Positions 1,532 to 17,010 of a stretch of DNA of 28,526 bases are shown here, in pieces (position 1 is the first letter of the stretch; the number at the start of each line of letters is the position of its first letter). The stretch covers positions 1 to 28,526 of the forward strand of contig JAHYJR010000009.1 of assembly GCA_019429005.1 (NCBI GenBank), given 5' to 3'. The translations under genes were made by a program, and so were the position numbers. This DNA comes from Nanobdellati archaeon (GTDB taxonomy: Archaea; EX4484-52; GLR71). The notes beneath the pieces were generated by a model. The model ran no database searches and was not told where the DNA came from. It saw only the letters and a program-made list of their open reading frames with translations.

Positions 1532-2872
1532 TTAAAATAATTTATTTTCTCTTCTTGAAAAACAGGAACTTCCACCGACAAGACACTTTGGTTTACAAAG
1601 ACTGTTCACACACCGTGCCATCATAGATGCACCAAGAGCAAGACCATCTTCTACAGCATAGACCTCATAACCGTCAAGCATAGCATCAACAATATCAAGC
1701 TTATTGCCTTCTATTGCAGCACGACCCGTAAGACCCAAAATATAAGAATCTATGTATTTTTTAGATTCAGTTACAAGCACATCGATTAAAATTGCAGAGG
1801 TATTATCTATCGTATCATAGATAGCTTTCTGACCATAAGTTTCAAATAAATCACGACCAATATCTGATATTTTTCTAAGATCTGAACCATTTATACCCAC
1901 ATCAATACCTATAATTTCAATATCTTGTTCTTTTGCCTTATCAAGATATACAGGCACCATACCACACACATCTTTATTGACAGAACCTACAGAAATATAA
2001 TCCATAAGTTTAGATGAGAAATCCAAAGAACCCTCATTAAGATAATCTGCATCGCCAGACTCTAATTCACCAAGATCCATAACAGATGGATAATCATCAG
2101 TTGCAATACTGCTGACTAAAGCATCAAATATTCCACCATAAAGACCGACAAAACAGACTTTTGTCATATTATCATCAATAACTTTTCCGGCAAGAGTTGT
2201 GCCACCATCTATGAATATACCAGAATCAATATACGAATCTGAACCGAATACGCACTGTTGAAACTGTTTATTAGATTTATTAACTTCAAAAGATATTGCA
2301 TCTTTCAAGCCAGCAACCACAAGGTCGCTTTCCATACTGTTTGCAGTCACACTGTCAGGCATAACATTTGCGACATAACCGTCAAATGGCAATTTGTCAT
2401 AAACAGAATATTTCTTAAGAGATTCGGGTATATCTTGTATCATCTTTTTAGAAGGTATACCTGTATTTAAACAACCATTTGCAAGAGATATTATTATATT
2501 GTCAAGGTCTTTTGAATTATCCATACCTGCAACAATACCTGTAGACCTTACTGCAAAATCAAGATCTTTTGTGTTTAGGCGTAAATTGAAAAAAGTCTTT
2601 CGGATTGCATCTGAAATATAATCTGACAATTCAGATGTTCCTAGATTTTTGCCTAAGACAGTCTTGAAATCGTTACCATCATCAACATCACGTGTCATAG
2701 ACACACCTTTTTCTAAAAGATATGTTTTTTTGCTTGGAAACTCTGTTGCTGTAAGAATCGTTTTTACGGTTGTGTTTCCGACTTCAACAGAAAGGCATGT
2801 GAAATACTTATTTGGATTCTTCCGGAATTCTTGTACATCAAGAGTTTCGTGAACAATAGAGTGTAAAACCAT
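1532..2872 (-). CDS. Methanogenesis marker protein 14 (DUF2114)-like, ASKHA/actin-like ATPase fold
   Basis: Family-type motifs SVEVGNTTVKTILTAT, DLDFAVRSTGIVAG, LANGCL, NSMESDL, DGGTTLAG, GLTGRAAI, VEDGLALGASMMARCVNSL. Confidence 0.85.
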   Translation of the reverse strand: MVLHSIVHETLDVQEFRKNPNKYFTCLSVEVGNTTVKTILTATEFPSKKTYLLEKGVSMTRDVDDGNDFKTVLGKNLGTSELSDYISDAIRKTFFNLRLNTKDLDFAVRSTGIVAGMDNSKDLDNIIISLANGCLNTGIPSKKMIQDIPESLKKYSVYDKLPFDGYVANVMPDSVTANSMESDLVVAGLKDAISFEVNKSNKQFQQCVFGSDSYIDSGIFIDGGTTLAGKVIDDNMTKVCFVGLYGGIFDALVSSIATDDYPSVMDLGELESGDADYLNEGSLDFSSKLMDYISVGSVNKDVCGMVPVYLDKAKEQDIEIIGIDVGINGSDLRKISDIGRDLFETYGQKAIYDTIDNTSAILIDVLVTESKKYIDSYILGLTGRAAIEGNKLDIVDAMLDGYEVYAVEDGLALGASMMARCVNSLCKPKCLVGGSSCFSRRENKLF

Positions 2873-3049: not shown

Positions 3050-4684
3050 ATGAGTGATTCTTCAAAAAAGAATATCTGGCCTTTAATAAAACCAGATATA
3101 ACTATACTAAATGAAGACGGATATGTTGCAGTTGCAACTTTAGATAACAAAAAACTTGATTTCTCTGATGTAAAAAATGTTTTGATACAAGGCCCTTTAA
3201 TAACTGAAAATGTAGGTATTGAAAAGCTTGTCATTAATACAGTAACAAATCCCTACATTAGATATCTTGTACTTGTTGATAGCGAAGTTATGGGTCATAA
3301 ACCAGCACACACAATAAATGCACTTGTCGAGAATGGAATAGATGAAGATACAAAAAGGATTATTGGTGCAGAAGGTGCTATACCGAATATCCCAAACATT
3401 AATGATGATATAATTGCGCATTTTAGAGAACAAATTGAAATCGTAAACCTTGTAAAAGATTATAACCCAGATCTACAAGTGCTTTCAGATGATATATATT
3501 TAGAAACTATAAAAGAACAAATTGCAAATTTACCTAAAAAAGATTCTTTTACAACTTATGAACATAAAATTGACTTACCACTTCTTGGAACACCGATGAA
3601 AGAAATGAAACCAAGAATATCTGATAATATAGCTAACAGCATGATATACCCTACTGCATCTCATCCGTTTAATGAACTTAGAGGAGGTACAGACATATCA
3701 TCTTGGAATCGTAAAATATCTAATATAGGCGGAACATTACTTGGAGGATACCCTGGACAGTTTCCAATCTTTATGGGTGGAAGCATATTCTATAAAGGAC
3801 ATGATATCCTAAAAGATTCAAAAAAAGGTATTTTTGATGAAAAAAGAGCAGAAGAATTAATATTATGCCAAGATGCATTATCTTCAAAATATAACATTCC
3901 ATGCTTTATTGACCTTGTTGCAGACACTAAAGAAGCTGCTGAAAAATACATATTATTTTTTACTGAAATAAGTGATTCACCGTTTGCTATTGATTCAGGA
4001 GTCTCTGATGTTAGAATACATGCTGCACAATTTGCAGAGGAAATTGGACTTGGAAACAGATTAATCTATAACTCACTTAACATGGGTATTGATGAGAAAG
4101 AAGCGTCATACTTACAAAATAATCCGCCACAAAATGCAATTGTCCTCGCATATTCAAGTGAATATGGATTATCAAAAAAAGAGGATGTATTATATTCAAG
4201 AGGTCTCGTAACTCATGACGAGATTCTTAAAATGAATCGTAAAGAACTTACAAAACTTGCAAGGACAAGTACATTATCATTTGCAGAAGCAATAGGAATC
4301 CCAAATATACTTATTGATACAGCAGCAGTTAGCGGAATGGATGGCTTGATTGCACTTGAAAAATTCAATGATTATGGTTATCCTTTAGGTTGTGGTGCAC
4401 ATAACGTGATTCAAGATCCAAAAAATAGCTATGCTAGTGTTAGTATAAATGCAATTTCAAGAATAAAGGGTGCGGATTTTCTTTTATATGGACCAATAGA
4501 TAGCTCAAAAGAAAACTTTTCTTCAATGAACCAAATAGAAAAAGTTATGGGCGATTATAATACTAAATCATTTAATATAATTCCAGCAACAAAACATCCT
4601 TTTTGGGGCGAGGAGGATAAAGATGAATCTTGTAGACCCGGAATATGTACAAGACCATGTCGTAAGACAAATATTGTGCCATAG
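3050..4684 (+). CDS. MtrA-MtrH fusion (cobamide-binding domain + pterin methyltransferase TIM barrel), soluble MtxA/MtxH-like
   Basis: aa ~1-165 MtrA-like (WPL...VAVATL...TENVGIEKLV...NPYIRYL...SEVMGH...IIGAEGAIP...FREQIEIV, His83). From aa ~219 MtrH-like (IGGTLLGGYPGQFP...GSIFYKGH...KGIFDEKRAEELI; PFAIDS; LIYNSLN; PLGCGAHN; GADFLLYGPI). No TM helix seen. Confidence 0.9.
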   Translation: MSDSSKKNIWPLIKPDITILNEDGYVAVATLDNKKLDFSDVKNVLIQGPLITENVGIEKLVINTVTNPYIRYLVLVDSEVMGHKPAHTINALVENGIDEDTKRIIGAEGAIPNIPNINDDIIAHFREQIEIVNLVKDYNPDLQVLSDDIYLETIKEQIANLPKKDSFTTYEHKIDLPLLGTPMKEMKPRISDNIANSMIYPTASHPFNELRGGTDISSWNRKISNIGGTLLGGYPGQFPIFMGGSIFYKGHDILKDSKKGIFDEKRAEELILCQDALSSKYNIPCFIDLVADTKEAAEKYILFFTEISDSPFAIDSGVSDVRIHAAQFAEEIGLGNRLIYNSLNMGIDEKEASYLQNNPPQNAIVLAYSSEYGLSKKEDVLYSRGLVTHDEILKMNRKELTKLARTSTLSFAEAIGIPNILIDTAAVSGMDGLIALEKFNDYGYPLGCGAHNVIQDPKNSYASVSINAISRIKGADFLLYGPIDSSKENFSSMNQIEKVMGDYNTKSFNIIPATKHPFWGEEDKDESCRPGICTRPCRKTNIVP

Positions 4685-4701
4685 TAAGATCTGTGATTAT
4701 T

Positions 4702-6057
4702 ATGAATAATATAATAAAAGATCCAAACATATTACGTGGAAAAACATTTCCAAATGTTTGGAGACAATATCTTGATGACATAAACCGGAATGGCCTTAGA
4801 AATTATACTGAAGAAAAAGGCATAATTAATGAAAATTTCTGTACGCTTGCTGTTATCACAGACGTAAATAGTGGTAAGATACTTCCAGATGAATACAATA
4901 CAATTTCTGAAGCTAATATGCCCGGATACCTTAAAGAATATGGAAGCATAACCTGCATGGATAATCTTGATTTTGAATATACATATGGTGAACTTGAATG
5001 TGATCATTTTGGATATAATCAGCTCGAAGATGCTATCAGTAAAATCCAAAATAATCCAGAAGGAACATATGCTACAATGAGATGGGATCCTCCAGTCGCA
5101 TGGGATACAAAAAGTAGACCTTGTCTTGTATCTTCAATATGGAAAGAATTTAATGACGCAATACATACAATACAGATTGTAAGAGTGCATGATATAAAAG
5201 GAGGGATACCTGCAAACAATTACGGAGTTACAAACGCTTGGGGACAAAATGTATCTAACGCACTTAACATACCACTTGGTGATGTAGCATATCTTTCAAT
5301 AGTTCCGGATTTTAGAGATACAAATCTTAAAGAGGTTGAAACTATAACAAGATCATATGAAAACTGTGATCGTAACCTTATACCTAAAAACAGATCACAT
5401 TTACCAGGACCTGTACTTGTGAAAGCAAATGATATTAATACAGCATATCAAAAAGCAAAAGATGCATTTAAAAGACATTCAAAAGAAAATGTTAGTCAAA
5501 AGGAATTGATTCTTGGTGTATTTATAAGAGATGTAGATACAACAAACACAGACTATTATAATCTAGAGATTGTAGAAAAAACATTAAATGGTGAAAATGT
5601 TGTTGGGAATCGTCTCTGTAACTTTGAAGGTTATCCTGAAAGGACTGCAGAATATCTAAGAGGACATATCCGTGAGATTAAAGCTATGGATGATGATAAA
5701 TTTGACATATTTAAACAAGCACTCCCTAGAAAAATTGACCAGATTGAACAAAATGTAACTGGAAAATATGGTCTGATTGAAATGCCAAATCTTGTAAGAG
5801 TTGGTATGACACCATATGATCCTGTAAAAGATAAAAAAGGTACAGATACAAACCTTCTTTGGGCACAACCGCTCATACGTGGCGGTAGAATGAACATGGT
5901 CGGCGTTTATTTAGATTCTTCTACAGACGATTTCTCTGATGATTTCTCAACCATTGCAGGCATACAAAATCATATAACTGAGCGTGTCAATAATGAAACA
6001 GGACAGAAACTTGAAAATGGAAGTATATTTATTCAATATGCACCAATACATGATTAA
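4702..6057 (+). CDS. Thymidylate synthase-fold protein with two tandem archaeal-type TS domains (first keeps the catalytic Cys, second degenerate)
   Basis: Domain 1: FEYTYG...NQL...NNP...WDP...PCL...RVHD..GIPAN. Domain 2: GNRL...DQI...PNLVR..YDP..D...IRGGRMNM without PC. ATG 4702 preferred over GTG 4693 because GTGAT looks like the SD. Starts 17 nt after the mtrAH stop. Confidence 0.8.
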   Translation: MNNIIKDPNILRGKTFPNVWRQYLDDINRNGLRNYTEEKGIINENFCTLAVITDVNSGKILPDEYNTISEANMPGYLKEYGSITCMDNLDFEYTYGELECDHFGYNQLEDAISKIQNNPEGTYATMRWDPPVAWDTKSRPCLVSSIWKEFNDAIHTIQIVRVHDIKGGIPANNYGVTNAWGQNVSNALNIPLGDVAYLSIVPDFRDTNLKEVETITRSYENCDRNLIPKNRSHLPGPVLVKANDINTAYQKAKDAFKRHSKENVSQKELILGVFIRDVDTTNTDYYNLEIVEKTLNGENVVGNRLCNFEGYPERTAEYLRGHIREIKAMDDDKFDIFKQALPRKIDQIEQNVTGKYGLIEMPNLVRVGMTPYDPVKDKKGTDTNLLWAQPLIRGGRMNMVGVYLDSSTDDFSDDFSTIAGIQNHITERVNNETGQKLENGSIFIQYAPIHD

Positions 6058-6075: not shown

Positions 6076-6955
6076 ATGATAAACATGAAACCTGTAGATT
6101 TACATATACACACAAATATGTCTGATGGAAATATATCTTCTGAAGAAATAATAAAAATTGTTTCAGGTAAACTTTCAGCTATAGCTTTTACAAACCATGA
6201 AAGCATAAAAGCATATGAAAATGTTACTGTTGAACTTGGAAAAAAATATAATGTTTAAATTATAACAGGAACTGAAATAAATGTCAATCATAACGGTATA
6301 AATTGTGAGATACTAGGATATCTGTTTGATTCTAAAGATGAAAAACTAAATTGTTTTTTAGATAAACTCAATAAAACAAAATTAGGTTCAATTAAAAAAT
6401 TAATTGATATAATTAATTCTGAAGATATTTTGAATAAACCGATAGATATTGAATCTTATTTTTCTAAATCAAATCATATAAACAAACATCATGTCGCAAA
6501 AGGTATGATTGAAAACGGTTATAATGACACAAAAGATACAATATTCAAAAACTATTTTACTATAGATAAAATAAAACAAACAGAATGGAAATTTCCACGA
6601 CTTAAAACAGCATCAAAGATTATTAGGGATGCAGGTGGTGCGGTTGGAATTGCACACCCTGAAAGGATAGCTATTCAAGATAAACTCAAATTCATAAAAG
6701 ACATAATGCCGCACATCACAATAATTGAAGCGATATATAACTATCGTGAATTTAGGAACTCTAAATAAAATAAACAATTCAGACAGGATTCTGAAAAAAA
6801 AAATAACCTTTGCAAAAAATGAAGGGCTTTTAATCTGCGGTGGATCTGATTTTCATTATCTTAACAAAAATGAAGAAAATGTTCTTGGTAAATTTTCCAT
6901 ACCCTATGAGTATCTTGAAAAGATAAAAGAAGCTAATTTGAAACATAATAGATAA
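6076..6955 (+). pseudogene. PHP-family (YciV/TrpH-like) metal-dependent phosphoesterase, disrupted
   Basis: DLHIHTNMSDG, FTNHE, (in-frame TAA 6256-6258) ITGTEIN...EILGY, AHPER, then GGSDFH in the +1 frame. Second TAA at 6766-6768 and an A10 run at 6794-6803. Confidence 0.85.
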
Positions 6956-6975: not shown

Positions 6976-7587
6976 TTATTTTTTTCTTACAGTTCCAATA
7001 CCCGGAAATACAGCATCATAATCCCTAAAAAGCTTATACTGTGCATCTTTATCCTCAGTCCGATATAATTTTTTCTGAGTAACATTAGAAATGTCATCAA
7101 ATACATTTACATCACCCCAACCATTTGGGTTTGGAAATGCATAAAATGGTATATGTTCAGGCACACCCTCAATAAAGATAGTATTTATATCTGAACCAAT
7201 ACTTCTTGCATGGTATGATCTATGTGCACCATCCTCTACCAATATAACACCACCATCAATATCTGACCTATGTGTTATCACAGGAAGCAATGTATATGTA
7301 AAAGTGCCATCATCTATAACGTAGCCTTTCTCAAGACAATAGCTGTTTATATCAAATTCGTTAATCAAAGTCTTATGTAAAATATCCTGCATCTTAATAC
7401 GATCTTCTAAGACATAGAAAGCTGTAGGTGATAATTCATCTGTATGGAACTTCTTAATAGATACATTTGCTTCTTTATATGGACAGATTTCCGAATTAAA
7501 AAGAAGTGGCGTATTCTTTATCCCTGAGATAAGATCTTGAGTTGATAGTTCATCACAGATTTCAATATTAAGAGGATTATCTTGCAT
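6976..7587 (-). CDS. Hypothetical protein with ParB/Sulfiredoxin-like motif
   Basis: 203 aa. LSPTAFYV...LLPVI...ILVEDGAHRSYHA..IG resembles the ParB/Srx P-x(n)-DGxHR core. Confidence 0.55.
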   Translation of the reverse strand: MQDNPLNIEICDELSTQDLISGIKNTPLLFNSEICPYKEANVSIKKFHTDELSPTAFYVLEDRIKMQDILHKTLINEFDINSYCLEKGYVIDDGTFTYTLLPVITHRSDIDGGVILVEDGAHRSYHARSIGSDINTIFIEGVPEHIPFYAFPNPNGWGDVNVFDDISNVTQKKLYRTEDKDAQYKLFRDYDAVFPGIGTVRKK

Positions 7588-7662: not shown

Positions 7663-7881
7663 CAAATATTTAACAGAAAATATTTAACAGAAAATATTTA
7701 ACAGAAAATATTTAACAGAAAATATTTAACAGAAAATATTTAACAGAAAATATTTAACAGAAAATATTTAACAGAAAATATTTAACAGAAAATATTTAAC
7801 AGAAAATATTTAACACACAATATTTAACAGACAATATTTAACAGAAAATATTTAACAGAAAATATTTAACAGAAAATATTT
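7663..7881. repeat. Non-coding 14-bp tandem repeat (AAAATATTTAACAG) x ~15.6
   Basis: 15 full units at 7663-7872 plus a 9-bp partial. Single-base variants in units at 7663, 7803, 7817 and 7831. No spacers. Confidence 0.97.
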
Positions 7882-7983: not shown

Positions 7984-8646
7984 TTAAAGATATTTGTTTT
8001 TCGTTAATATTGGATTTAAATGACTTAAAGTCTTATTAAAAAGTGCACCAATAGAATCCTCTTTTGTATGCCTGAAACCAATCTTAACAGTATCAAGCAC
8101 AACAACATTATCGTAATATTCTGAAAGTTTCAAGTAATTATTTCTTGCAATAATCTGCTTTTGAATATTTGACTCATCACGATTCATTGCTTCATTTCGA
8201 CTCGATAATCTCTCTGATGCAAGATAAGGTGGGATATCATATATAAGTATCAGACTTGGATCTGGCATAAAACTGTTAATCTCTTTAATATCTTGATAAG
8301 ATAAATCTCCAGATGTCTGTGATGCGAAAGTTGATGTTAAACCCCTGTTTGATATTACGTTTGTGCCTTTTGCTAAATTGGGCTCAATAACTGTCGATAA
8401 AAGATAAGCCCTATCAGCTGCAAAAAGATGTGCTTTTGTTCGATCATCAAATGCAACATCAGACGATTTTAGATTTGTTGCTTTCAAAAGAGCACCTATC
8501 GGATTCGCTGTAGGCTCCTGAACAAAAATACAATCTAAAGCATTTTTATCAACATAATGTTTAAGCAAATCTACTTGTGTATCTTTTCCAGAACCGCTTA
8601 TACCATCAAGAATTATGTAATTACCGCGTTCATTGTTTGGAACCAT
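7984..8646 (-). CDS. tmk: Thymidylate (dTMP) kinase
   Basis: P-loop ILDGISGSGKDTQ, QEPT, LFAADRA, VISNRG (canonical DR), PDPSLILIYD. Confidence 0.88.
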   Translation of the reverse strand: MVPNNERGNYIILDGISGSGKDTQVDLLKHYVDKNALDCIFVQEPTANPIGALLKATNLKSSDVAFDDRTKAHLFAADRAYLLSTVIEPNLAKGTNVISNRGLTSTFASQTSGDLSYQDIKEINSFMPDPSLILIYDIPPYLASERLSSRNEAMNRDESNIQKQIIARNNYLKLSEYYDNVVVLDTVKIGFRHTKEDSIGALFNKTLSHLNPILTKNKYL

Positions 8647-15096: not shown

Positions 15097-17010
15097 TCAA
15101 TTTATACCAATAATCTTTTCAGGAGACCCATTAGATTTTGCAAGTTTAACCACGGCTCCCTCATCACGATAATATTCTGCAATGATTTTTCCAACATTGT
15201 TTATATCTTTAATACCCTTATCTAACATCCATTGAAGTACAATCTGTTTTTCAACTAAATTCTCTTCAATTTCAGTCTCATTCATACCAGTATAAAGATT
15301 TATCTCATTTATCAACCGTATAAGACGCCCTTTTCGAATAAATGTATCAGTATGCACGTCCCACTTATATACTACGTTTACCTCATTTGAGACATCTACA
15401 GGAACTATTTCTGCAACTTCAAGAGTTCTTCTAACACCCATACGTCTCTGACGATATTGAACAACCATAAGGTGTAATGCACTGATTAAAGATGCGGGAA
15501 GATTCATAGGTGGATTTATAAGACGTTGATATGCCTGTTCAGCACGATCAGAATGAAATGTAGCATAAGCAGAGTGACCAGTCCGAATTGCTTCAAACAT
15601 AACTTCGGCTTCTTTTCTACGCCGAATCTCTCCGATAATAATCCTGTCAGGTCGCATCCTCAACGAATTTACAAGGAGATCAAGCATAGATACCTTACCT
15701 TGACCTTCTGCATTTGCTTCTCTTGCAGATAATGGCACCCAATGTAAAAATTTAGGTAATTGTATTTCACGAGTATCTTCAATTGAGATGATTCTCTGAT
15801 TTGGTGGTATAAACGGTATAAGCGCATTTAAAAGAGAAGTCTTACCACTTGCAGTACCACCTACAACAAGTATATTAAGCTCATATTGTAATGCAAGCCA
15901 AAGAAGTGCTGCAACTTCCTTTGAAAGTGTGTTTATCTTAGGATCTATAAGATGCACAATAGTCCAAGGATCTCTAGAAAAACGACGAATTGTTAAAGTG
16001 TTACCTTGAGAAGATATTGGAGATATCGTTGCATTAACACGATCTCCTGTTGTAAGGTATGCATCCATAAGAGGATGAAGATTTGTTATTTGCCTTCCAA
16101 CTTTACGCCCAATAGCACCCGCATAATTATATATCATCTCTTCGCTTTTGAAAAGAATATTTGTCTTTACCCAACCAAACCTTTTATGATAGACCCAAAC
16201 TGGCTCAGAACTACTATTTACAACAATCTCTTCAAGATTATCATCATTTAAAAGAAGTTCAATATCACCAAGACCTAACATCTCATGAATCAGATTACCA
16301 CTGATTAAATTCATCTCTAGTTTTGATAGCCCTGGAAGATATTTATCAATAAGTTCATAAGACCGTTCCATAAAACGTTTCTTTATAGTTATTATCGCTT
16401 GAGGATCCACAAATTCTTTAGTTGTTATATCAACTGAAGAGATTATCTCTTCACGGATTTTATCAACAATTGCTCTTGTTGCTGGCTGAATAAGTGCACG
16501 TTTTATATCATAGATTGGTACATATTCTTCCAAAGTTGTATAAATAGTAACTCTAGCTGGAACATTATCTGCTATAAGATCATATTCCATCTTGATTGTC
16601 CTATCAGCACCGATTTGTTTAGGATGTGTGTCAACAGATTTATTTGGTTTAGATATGGTTTTATGGAGAGGTTTATGATCTGATTTAGATATGGTTTTAT
16701 GGAGAGGTTTATGATCTGATTTAGATATGGTTTTATGGAGAGGTTTATGATCTGATTTAGATATGGTTTTATGGAGAGGTTTATGATCTGATTTAGATAT
16801 GGTTTTATGGAGAGGTTTAGATTTAGTAGTAATCTTTTTTTTAGATGAACTCTTTGAATTTGATTTATGTGTCTGTTTAGGTATAATGTCATGTACTAAT
16901 TTAGAAATGGCCTTCTTTAAAACCTTAGAAGTTGAACCTGAAACAGACTTAGGATGTGATTTATTTGATGTTTTAGTTGATTTATCCACATTTACCGATT
17001 TTTTTACCAT
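15097..17010 (-). CDS. Type IV pilus assembly ATPase (CpaF/VirB11/FlaI family) with low-complexity N-terminal extension
   Basis: GGTASGKTS, SIEDTREI, SLRMRPDRIIIGEIR, TGHSAYATFH. Confidence 0.93.
   Translation of the reverse strand: MVKKSVNVDKSTKTSNKSHPKSVSGSTSKVLKKAISKLVHDIIPKQTHKSNSKSSSKKKITTKSKPLHKTISKSDHKPLHKTISKSDHKPLHKTISKSDHKPLHKTISKSDHKPLHKTISKPNKSVDTHPKQIGADRTIKMEYDLIADNVPARVTIYTTLEEYVPIYDIKRALIQPATRAIVDKIREEIISSVDITTKEFVDPQAIITIKKRFMERSYELIDKYLPGLSKLEMNLISGNLIHEMLGLGDIELLLNDDNLEEIVVNSSSEPVWVYHKRFGWVKTNILFKSEEMIYNYAGAIGRKVGRQITNLHPLMDAYLTTGDRVNATISPISSQGNTLTIRRFSRDPWTIVHLIDPKINTLSKEVAALLWLALQYELNILVVGGTASGKTSLLNALIPFIPPNQRIISIEDTREIQLPKFLHWVPLSAREANAEGQGKVSMLDLLVNSLRMRPDRIIIGEIRRRKEAEVMFEAIRTGHSAYATFHSDRAEQAYQRLINPPMNLPASLISALHLMVVQYRQRRMGVRRTLEVAEIVPVDVSNEVNVVYKWDVHTDTFIRKGRLIRLINEINLYTGMNETEIEENLVEKQIVLQWMLDKGIKDINNVGKIIAEYYRDEGAVVKLAKSNGSPEKIIGIN
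16648..16819. repeat. 36-bp in-frame tandem repeat x ~4.8 encoding (SDHKPLHKTISK)n
   Basis: Unit TTTAGATATGGTTTTATGGAGAGGTTTATGATCTGA at 16648, 16684, 16720 and 16756, partial at 16792. Confidence 0.97.

Follow-up and report, generated by a model that had tools for sequence, protein, structure and literature searches.

Two predicted thymidylate synthase folds in one chain behind an MtrA-MtrH gene: a possible cobamide-dependent route to dTMP in a small archaeon

Where does the methyl group of thymine come from in an archaeon whose only recognisable gene of the thymidylate synthase (TS) fold lies directly behind a gene for a corrinoid methyltransferase? The established routes to dTMP are ThyA and ThyX only. 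The question is raised by a stretch of 28,526 nucleotides from a Nanobdellati archaeon (contig JAHYJR010000009.1; the window), in which three adjacent genes for soluble-looking proteins encode a tandem TS protein (TS-TS), an MtrA-MtrH fusion and methanogenesis marker 14. This locus ties together three questions, namely those of the archaeal TS, of MtrA and MtrH in non-methanogens and of marker 14. Archaeal thymidylate synthases are described as barely characterised in the available text of PMC9931769, and the accessible part of PMC9635834 calls it unclear what MtrAH does outside methanogenesis.

The TS-TS reading frame (4702-6057, plus strand) is intact and encodes 451 amino acids counted from the ATG; an alternative in-frame GTG start at 4693 would give a product of 454 residues. 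A promoter scan with a sigma-70 model, which is unsuited to an archaeon, stayed at chance level. The first domain, TS1 (approximately residues 1-225; 4702..5376, plus strand), is matched by NCBIfam TIGR03283 over residues 10-203 with E 7e-24, at 84.4 bits against a cut-off of 174.55. Pfam PF00303 gave no match to TS-TS at E 0.1 and none at E 1 across the genome. Motif sites were matched by alignment to the classic ThyA of a relative (genome G015, locus L076), which carries PPCH, RSVD...PFN, DRR and THIY. The residues of note in TS1, in the numbering of the window protein, are K39, Y76, Y95, R127, C141, R161, D164, N172, S199 and R205. As an earlier note on this DNA had read, TS1 keeps the PC motif with the predicted nucleophile (Pro140-Cys141; Cys codon 5122..5124, plus strand) and an Asn at the uracil-selecting position, which is Asp in cytosine-specific enzymes (Asn172; codon 5215..5217, plus strand). 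The three motif changes that the note listed are also in the sequence. The RSxD phosphate motif of ThyA has become RVHD (R161-V162-H163-D164, then IKGGIPA-N172), with Arg and Asp kept and Ser lost, the site of the RR pair reads P119-EGTY, and the HxY sugar-binding motif is replaced by SIVPDFR (S199-IVPDF-R205; 5296..5316, plus strand), with Arg205 at the Tyr position. Every core catalytic residue of ThyA that could be placed by alignment is kept; no reliable position was obtained for the counterpart of the Glu that activates folate.

The second domain, TS2 (residues 231-451; 5392..6057, plus strand), has neither the Cys nor RSxD. The whole-chain AlphaFold2 model of TS-TS reached a pLDDT of 82 and a pTM of 0.86, with a low-confidence insertion in TS2 at approximately residues 323-364. 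TS1 (approximately residues 6-223) matched TS-family structures with Z 20-23.6, some 200 residues aligning at an rmsd of about 2 A. The best structural matches were an FAD-dependent dCMP hydroxylase from a phage (Z 23.6) and MilA, a CMP hydroxymethylase (Z 21.4), and classic TS structures scored Z of about 20-21, at most 3 units below the top. A PDB sequence search with the TS-TS protein returned nothing useful. Modelled alone (residues 231-451), TS2 reached a pLDDT of 80.6; the alignment behind this model misplaced roughly the first 40 residues, which fits the low model confidence there. When this model was searched unfiltered against 48,161 chains, the top seven were all of the TS family (Z 12.2-13.7, rmsd 2.7-5.7 A, 140-169 residues aligned) and the next chain fell to Z 5.0. 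Its Foldseek matches were TS-family throughout the top ranks listed. HHalign between a 20-row TS2 profile and a 22-row short-TS profile gave 98.6% with E 8e-16, and a control with the profile reversed gave E 0.89; in the profile alignment, Leu takes the place of the Cys in TS2 and LDSS that of RSHD. The idea that TS2 adopts another fold was rejected on the strength of the seven top chains and the HHalign value. As modelled, TS-TS joins a TS fold with the catalytic residues to a second TS fold without them, in agreement with the earlier proposal of two TS folds with a single live site, which had been said to fall if the C-terminal half were not a TS fold. The presumed geometry is that of a pseudo-dimer, in which TS2 would stand in for the partner subunit and complete one active site.

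A HMMER search of 1.84 billion representative sequences with TS-TS found 77 proteins, and a word-index homologue search gave no matches. The six best relatives are proteins of 811-906 amino acids with MtrA-like and mostly also DUF4346 domains before TS1 and TS2, and the five-domain fusion group (P0001-P0006 and P0010) includes one protein from a Chloroflexota record. In a quick tree of 91 TS domains, the TS1 of the window nests with six five-domain relatives (SH-aLRT 95) and then with nine proteins of a second subgroup of the same clade (97), apart from the other TS sequences of the phylum. Next to this clade stand four rows of stand-alone pseudo-dimers, one of them a fragment (support 87). 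The branch of the window protein is long (1.72 against a median of 0.65). From the tree and from the alignment of TS2 with its relatives, we read TS1 and TS2 as descendants of the five-domain MtrA-like/DUF4346/TS/TS clade that have shed the accessory domains.

The earlier note had allowed for a decaying gene whose Cys and Asn are not conserved in homologues. All 19 aligned homologues have Cys141, together with Arg161, Tyr95 and Ser199, and Asn172 is invariant in all seven of the closest group, together with K39, R127, D164 and R205. Three of these, K39, R127 and R205, are basic residues that TS1 has gained and that do not vary in the subgroup, whose alignment including the window protein holds 31 invariant columns. 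The loss of HxY is common to the whole five-domain clade; at V162 and D203 the window protein departs from every one of its six closest relatives. By these alignments the motif changes are mostly clade-wide and not decay, and the gene is genuine and intact and belongs to an uncharacterised clade of TS pseudo-dimers.

The RR pair is more complicated. TS2, which is alignable with 19 relatives, does carry the Arg seen earlier in PNLVRV at the second RR position (Arg366 in L364-V-R366; codon 5797-5799), and yet this residue is not conserved, being found in two of the seven subgroup proteins, namely the window protein and P0001, one of its six closest relatives. Among the 20 rows at this site, SRR occurs in three stand-alone proteins, HNN in nine (all nine of the next subgroup) and Lys in the fragment P0031. 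The three with SRR are the sister stand-alone pseudo-dimers P0007, P0008 and P0014, in which TS1 has no RR. In T4 dCMP hydroxymethylase the RR pair comes from the opposite protomer, according to the accessible part of PMC6400193. Donation between protomers, on which the earlier note relied, thus fits the ancestor, as the RR-site counts and the T4 precedent indicate, while the Arg of the window TS2 does not hold up as a conserved phosphate ligand. The alignments suggest that phosphate binding has probably been rewired in the subgroup of the window protein.

What does the rest of the cell offer for dTMP synthesis? The source genome comprises 1.08 Mb and is 93.55% complete. In this assembly we found no other ThyA and no ThyX (PF02511), and TS-TS is the only gene found with a TS fold. 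DHFR, SHMT, FolD, Fhs, MetF, a PF02441 flavoprotein and MetE did not pass their cut-offs, thymidine kinase reached only E 0.06, below cut-off, and a search of the genome for a BtuF-type binding protein found none. The genome has genes for a dUTPase-family protein, a dCMP-deaminase-like protein and a dTMP kinase, the last of these in the window (7984..8646, minus strand; TIGR00041, over cut-off). A stand-alone DUF4346 gene lies on another contig (C7) and is 36-51% identical to the copies of relatives; searched genome-wide, a profile of the N-terminal part of the relatives matched only this gene and the MtrA domain of the locus. TS-TS is likely the only recognisable thymidylate-making enzyme of this archaeon, the absences being those of an incomplete genome. 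It is not ThyA by motif or score and probably does the job of ThyA, and we are fairly confident that its product is dTMP. The earlier note had suggested a non-standard substrate or methyl donor. The second half of this suggestion gains from the context, with MtrA-MtrH upstream and neither DHFR nor SHMT found. The first half loses ground: dUMP is the likelier substrate, because TS-TS is the only TS candidate and genes for dUTPase, dCMP deaminase and dTMP kinase are present, with no thymidine kinase found over cut-off. A dCMP-specific enzyme was rejected on account of Asn172 at the base-selecting position.

The gene directly before TS-TS encodes a fusion of 544 amino acids on the same strand, whose stop codon lies 17 nt before the TS-TS ATG. 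Its MtrA-type corrinoid-binding domain (3050..3560, plus strand; PF04208, E 1.5e-34) aligns to the structures 8q3v and 5laa, and its MtrH-type methyl-pterin:corrinoid methyltransferase domain (3710..4684, plus strand; PF02007, E 2e-55, over cut-off) has MtrH and MtgA matches in the PDB. The available text of PMC4915002 gives Thr53, Glu54, Asn55, Gly57, Asn64 and the cobalt ligand His84 as the corrinoid site of MtrA. At the sequence level, the domain of the window keeps T52, E53, N54, G56, N63 and the predicted cobalt ligand His83 (codon 3296-3298). Among 7,996 scored candidates, this fusion itself was the only one with both the MtrA and the MtrH domain in one chain. Divergent from this gene lies methanogenesis marker 14 (DUF2114; 1532..2872, minus strand; TIGR03285, 295 bits, over cut-off). 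The 40 homologues among the matches listed are 32-36% identical to it, and the labelled ones belong to Methanomicrobiales or Methanoperedens. No relative was found in the PDB by single sequence or by profile. Marker 14 presumably carries actin-fold-like motifs. It is tied to Mtr in the accessible parts of PMC4153887 and PMC9635834, and we consider it a candidate for keeping the cobamide active.

Behind TS-TS follow a broken PHP phosphoesterase gene (6076..6955, plus strand; in-frame TAA at 6256-6258, frame change near 6725-6768) and a ParB-CE gene with a ParB/sulfiredoxin fold (6976..7587, minus strand; PF24392, E 1e-22). A ParB-CE homologue (30% identity, E 2e-26) also lies upstream of the closest TS relative, P0001 (locus L023). 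Since marker 14 and ParB-CE each occur in only one of 42 genomes of the phylum, both of them, together with TS-TS, look horizontally acquired, as far as sequence comparison can tell. The exact gene order was not found at a second locus: the related-locus scans gave none (the scan with P0001 returned one locus), and searches of metagenomes with the window protein and with P0002 were empty. PADLOC had no match for TS-TS, MtrA-MtrH, marker 14 or ParB-CE, so a known defence system was rejected.

We then asked how TS, MtrA and MtrH occur together in the phylum. The survey covers 42 genomes of about 13 genera, which are kin and not independent, with MtrH in only four genera, and we therefore claim no statistical test. 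Archaeal-type TS was counted as the 28 TIGR03283 matches, minus the classic ThyA of G015 and a 105-aa edge fragment in G033, plus G016 and G021, whose TS are MtrA-TS fusions that our TS profile also detected. This TS is present in 15 of 15 genomes with MtrH and in 25 of 27 with MtrA; three genomes (G012, G020 and G031) have it without MtrA. Stand-alone DUF4346 was found in 14 of the 15 MtrH genomes versus none of the 27 others (a weak match in G010 lies inside a fusion and was excluded), and MetF in 11 of 15 versus 2 of 27. MtrA occurs in none of the eight genomes with a strong ThyX (E below 1e-60); two MtrA genomes have a weak tandem Thy1-like gene. DHFR exceeded its cut-off only in G015, beside the classic ThyA, and this genome has no MtrA. 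At 14 MtrH loci of relatives, MtrH stands immediately before TS in four and after dCMP deaminase-MtrA in three. In G011, genes for dCMP deaminase, MtrA, MtrH, TS, MetF, SHMT and DUF4346 are clustered within 17 kb, with a chain order of SHMT, MetF, MtrH, MtrA, TS. MetE was found in one of five genomes tested and is absent from the other four, the source genome included; G011 has none. Fusions of TS to an MtrA with the His occur in two other genera, and P0069 is another such protein. Among P0001-P0081, a motif scan could read 19 MtrA-like domains and found no His in 18 of them; it missed at least two that bear it (P0069 and P0080). Because the MtrA-like domains of the closest relatives have no His, the usual partner module of this TS clade may not bind B12 in the His-on form.

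With TS-TS directly behind the MtrA-MtrH gene, the methyl group likely comes from B12. We propose, at a probability of roughly 45%, a third thymidylate chemistry, in which a cobamide-dependent enzyme of the ThyA fold passes the methyl group of methyl-Co(III)-MtrA directly to dUMP, in a folate-less symbiont that uses the methyl-pterin of its host and needs no DHFR. The narrower claim, that dUMP is methylated by a methyl-cobamide that MtrH has loaded on MtrA, has about an even chance as judged from sequence and gene context. TS2 would replace the partner subunit and leave one complete active site. By the chemistry of the family, Cys141 would add to C6 of dUMP, Asn172 would select uracil, and the phosphate would be held by Arg161 with K39, R127 or R205. 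MtrH would transfer the methyl group from a methyl-tetrahydropterin of the folate or methanopterin type, probably scavenged from the host, to the Co(I) that His83 of the MtrA domain would ligate. In the least certain step, the activated C5 would attack CH3-Co(III), and loss of H5, assisted by Tyr95, would yield dTMP. Marker 14 might reactivate or reload the cobamide, and the stand-alone DUF4346 might serve as a further subunit. Overall, the methyl group would pass from serine (or the host) to methyl-pterin, to methyl-cobamide on MtrA and to dUMP on the TS. No dihydropterin would be formed on this route and DHFR would hence not be needed. The route would explain the missing DHFR, the MetF of G011 in the absence of MetE, and the repeated fusion or adjacency of MtrA/MtrH and TS. 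The Cys-activated C5 would take up a methyl cation, as it does from SAM in RNA m5U and DNA m5C methyltransferases; little precedent is known for a carbon nucleophile that accepts a methyl group from cobalt heterolytically.

Several observations count against the cobamide route. The genome has neither MetF nor SHMT as a source of methyl-pterin and no BtuF-type protein; 14 MtrA-positive relatives have no MtrH, SHMT or MetF; the MtrA-like domains of the closest relatives are His-less and the TS2 Arg is not conserved; the window protein has its long branch and a broken gene adjoining; and the co-occurrence rests on about 13 genera of kin, four with MtrH.

The strongest competitor, which we consider rather unlikely, is ordinary ThyA chemistry, with methylene-tetrahydropterin as donor of both carbon and hydride and with MtrA, MtrH and DUF4346 supplying, carrying or regenerating the pterin or serving an unrelated methyl acceptor. 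The placeable core catalytic residues, all of them kept, would be explained, and DUF4346, which follows SHMT in relatives, is named a pterin-binding domain by Pfam and matches the tail of a dihydropteroate-synthase-like protein. The fused family is moreover dominated by His-less MtrA-like domains, and according to the available text of PMC9931769, extracts of Methanosarcina make dTMP from formaldehyde and tetrahydrosarcinapterin, which is methylene-level chemistry and also counts against the cobamide route. However, the genome offers no SHMT, FolD, Fhs, MetF, DHFR or PF02441 flavoprotein for making methylene-pterin or recycling dihydropterin, and the 12 top flavoprotein loci of relatives resemble UbiX, not a pterin reductase, by what we take to be the UbiX motif. 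MetE, an alternative methyl acceptor, is missing from four of the five genomes tested, the source genome among them. For the source genome, the possibility that MtrA-MtrH feeds a core methionine synthase was rejected for want of a PF01717 match.

An unlikely reading is that the enzyme acts on another nucleotide (UMP, dUDP/dUTP or uridine in RNA) or makes a non-methyl product, perhaps in a mobile modifying or defence cassette with ParB-CE and the phosphoesterase. The replaced HxY and the gained basic residues speak for it, as do the two modifying enzymes at the head of the TS1 structure list and the apparent acquisition of TS-TS, ParB-CE and marker 14. But Asn172 points to uracil, classic TS structures score within 3 Z units of the top, PADLOC recognises none of the locus genes, and such a reading would leave the cell without a recognisable source of dTMP. 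Least probable, and in our opinion improbable, is a truncated, decaying remnant of the five-domain fusion that lies beside MtrA-MtrH by accident: the three missing N-terminal domains, the long branch with its private V162 and D203, the broken next gene and the arrangement not found a second time stand against an intact 451-codon frame with 31 invariant subgroup columns and a confident model, a cut at a domain boundary with the missing domain types present as separate genes, relatives that also have MtrH directly before TS, and no other dTMP route found.

If the cobamide route is true, B12-dependent carbon methylation joins DNA precursor synthesis, and thymine synthesis without DHFR in many small archaea is explained. 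The locus would then be a compact machine consisting of a one-site pseudo-dimer, a fused MtrA-MtrH loader and a marker-14 activator, and orphan MtrA/MtrH pairs and DUF2114 would gain a function. Half-the-sites reactivity has been studied in an enzyme of which the pseudo-dimer is a naturally occurring one-site form (available text of PMC5981203). As the pseudo-dimer, a His-bearing B12 relay and a candidate activator come together at a single locus, the proposed chemistry is directly testable. A literature search of titles and the beginnings of abstracts, mostly outside subscription journals and supplements, found no link between TS and MtrA, no B12-dependent TS and no tandem TS, and none of PMC9635834, PMC4153887 and PMC4915002 has the word 'thymidylate' in its main text. 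The gene association may already be in print. The Pfam names 'ParB-CE' and 'PterinBD-DUF4346' may stem from a comparative-genomics study.

How does the locus compare with known systems? The methanogen-type TS of TIGR03283, the best library match, shares with TS1 the fold and the YTYG, PC, RxxD and Asn motifs. The window chain differs in having two domains and scoring below cut-off, in the loss of RR from the live domain, and in the changes from RSHD to RVHD and from SAHIY to VPDFR. Classic ThyA (EC 2.1.1.45, PF00303) has the same fold, Cys nucleophile and Asn selector, whereas the window protein has no PF00303 match, aligns with only residues 1-226 of the 264 of the E. coli chain and belongs to a genome in which neither DHFR nor SHMT was found. 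The five-domain fusions share with the window protein TS2, the loss of HxY and a ParB-CE neighbour. In contrast to them, its accessory domains are separate genes (MtrA at 3050, DUF4346 on C7), its MtrA, which forms one protein with MtrH, retains the cobalt His, and marker 14 is adjacent. The stand-alone pseudo-dimers P0007, P0008 and P0014, a probable sister group (87), have the same two-domain plan but differ in SRR in TS2, SAHIY in TS1 and Asp at the position of Asn172; the P0007 cluster has two members labelled Lokiarchaeota. TS-fold cytosine modifiers (T4 dCMP hydroxymethylase, MilA and phage AfhB) have the short TS fold and the top structural scores. They use Asp for cytosine, the dCMP determinant being Asp179 in the part of PMC6400193 available, whereas the window protein has Asn.

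Modular corrinoid methyltransferases such as MetH combine a methyl-pterin methyltransferase with a His-ligated corrinoid protein. The same two components, as at this locus, form the soluble MtrA/MtrH pairs with marker 14 of non-methanogens such as Thorarchaeia (accessible text of PMC9635834). Unlike in these pairs, MtrA and MtrH are one chain here, and the proposed acceptor would be a nucleotide carbon on a TS fold and not a thiol.

Two candidate start codons are available to the gene for the duplicated thymidylate synthase (TS), a GTG at 4693 and an ATG at 4702 (window 4693-4704), which leave 8 nt and 17 nt, respectively, between the upstream stop codon and the start. Downstream on the forward strand lies a PHP phosphoesterase gene (window 6076-6955) that is interrupted by an in-frame TAA and a change of frame, and is either a pseudogene or the product of an assembly error. 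A 14-bp A/T-rich unit is repeated almost perfectly in tandem (window 7664-7881; 15.6 copies, 98% matches) in the interval that separates the ParB-CE gene from that for dTMP kinase. Further along, a perfect 36-bp coding repeat (window 16642-16867; 4.8 copies, 100% matches) encodes part of the N-terminal tail of what we take, from its motifs, to be a type II/IV secretion-type ATPase, within a pilus-like operon. Elsewhere in the genome, the reverse strand of contig C8 stays open for 12,128 codons (15692-52078). This frame contains Cys-rich repeats, and after it comes one of 1,393 codons with a comparable composition.

A stand-alone DUF4346 gene (115 aa) is found on contig C7 of the same genome (33524-33871, L078). 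Across the phylum, the presence of such genes mirrors that of MtrH nearly exactly, and in two genera they are preceded by SHMT. In the relatives G018 and G023, a gene for a 430-aa Thy1 (ThyX-like) double-repeat protein, both repeats of which are weak matches, lies on contig C25 less than about 1 kb from the SHMT-DUF4346 pair.

MtrA-TS fusions of 594-611 aa are encoded in the relatives G016 and G021 (L045:370-2154 and L046:322-2157). Their MtrA part has the His, and their TS part, which is very divergent with long insertions, was matched neither by TIGR03283 nor by Pfam. Another homologue, P0038 (786 aa), consists of an MtrA-like domain, a TS domain, DUF4346, a second TS domain without Cys and a further DUF4346. 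This is a separate duplication, and it suggests that the one-site pseudo-dimer has more than one origin. The stand-alone pseudo-dimers P0007, P0008 and P0014 carry Asp at the uracil-selecting position, a residue that suggests they act on a cytosine substrate.
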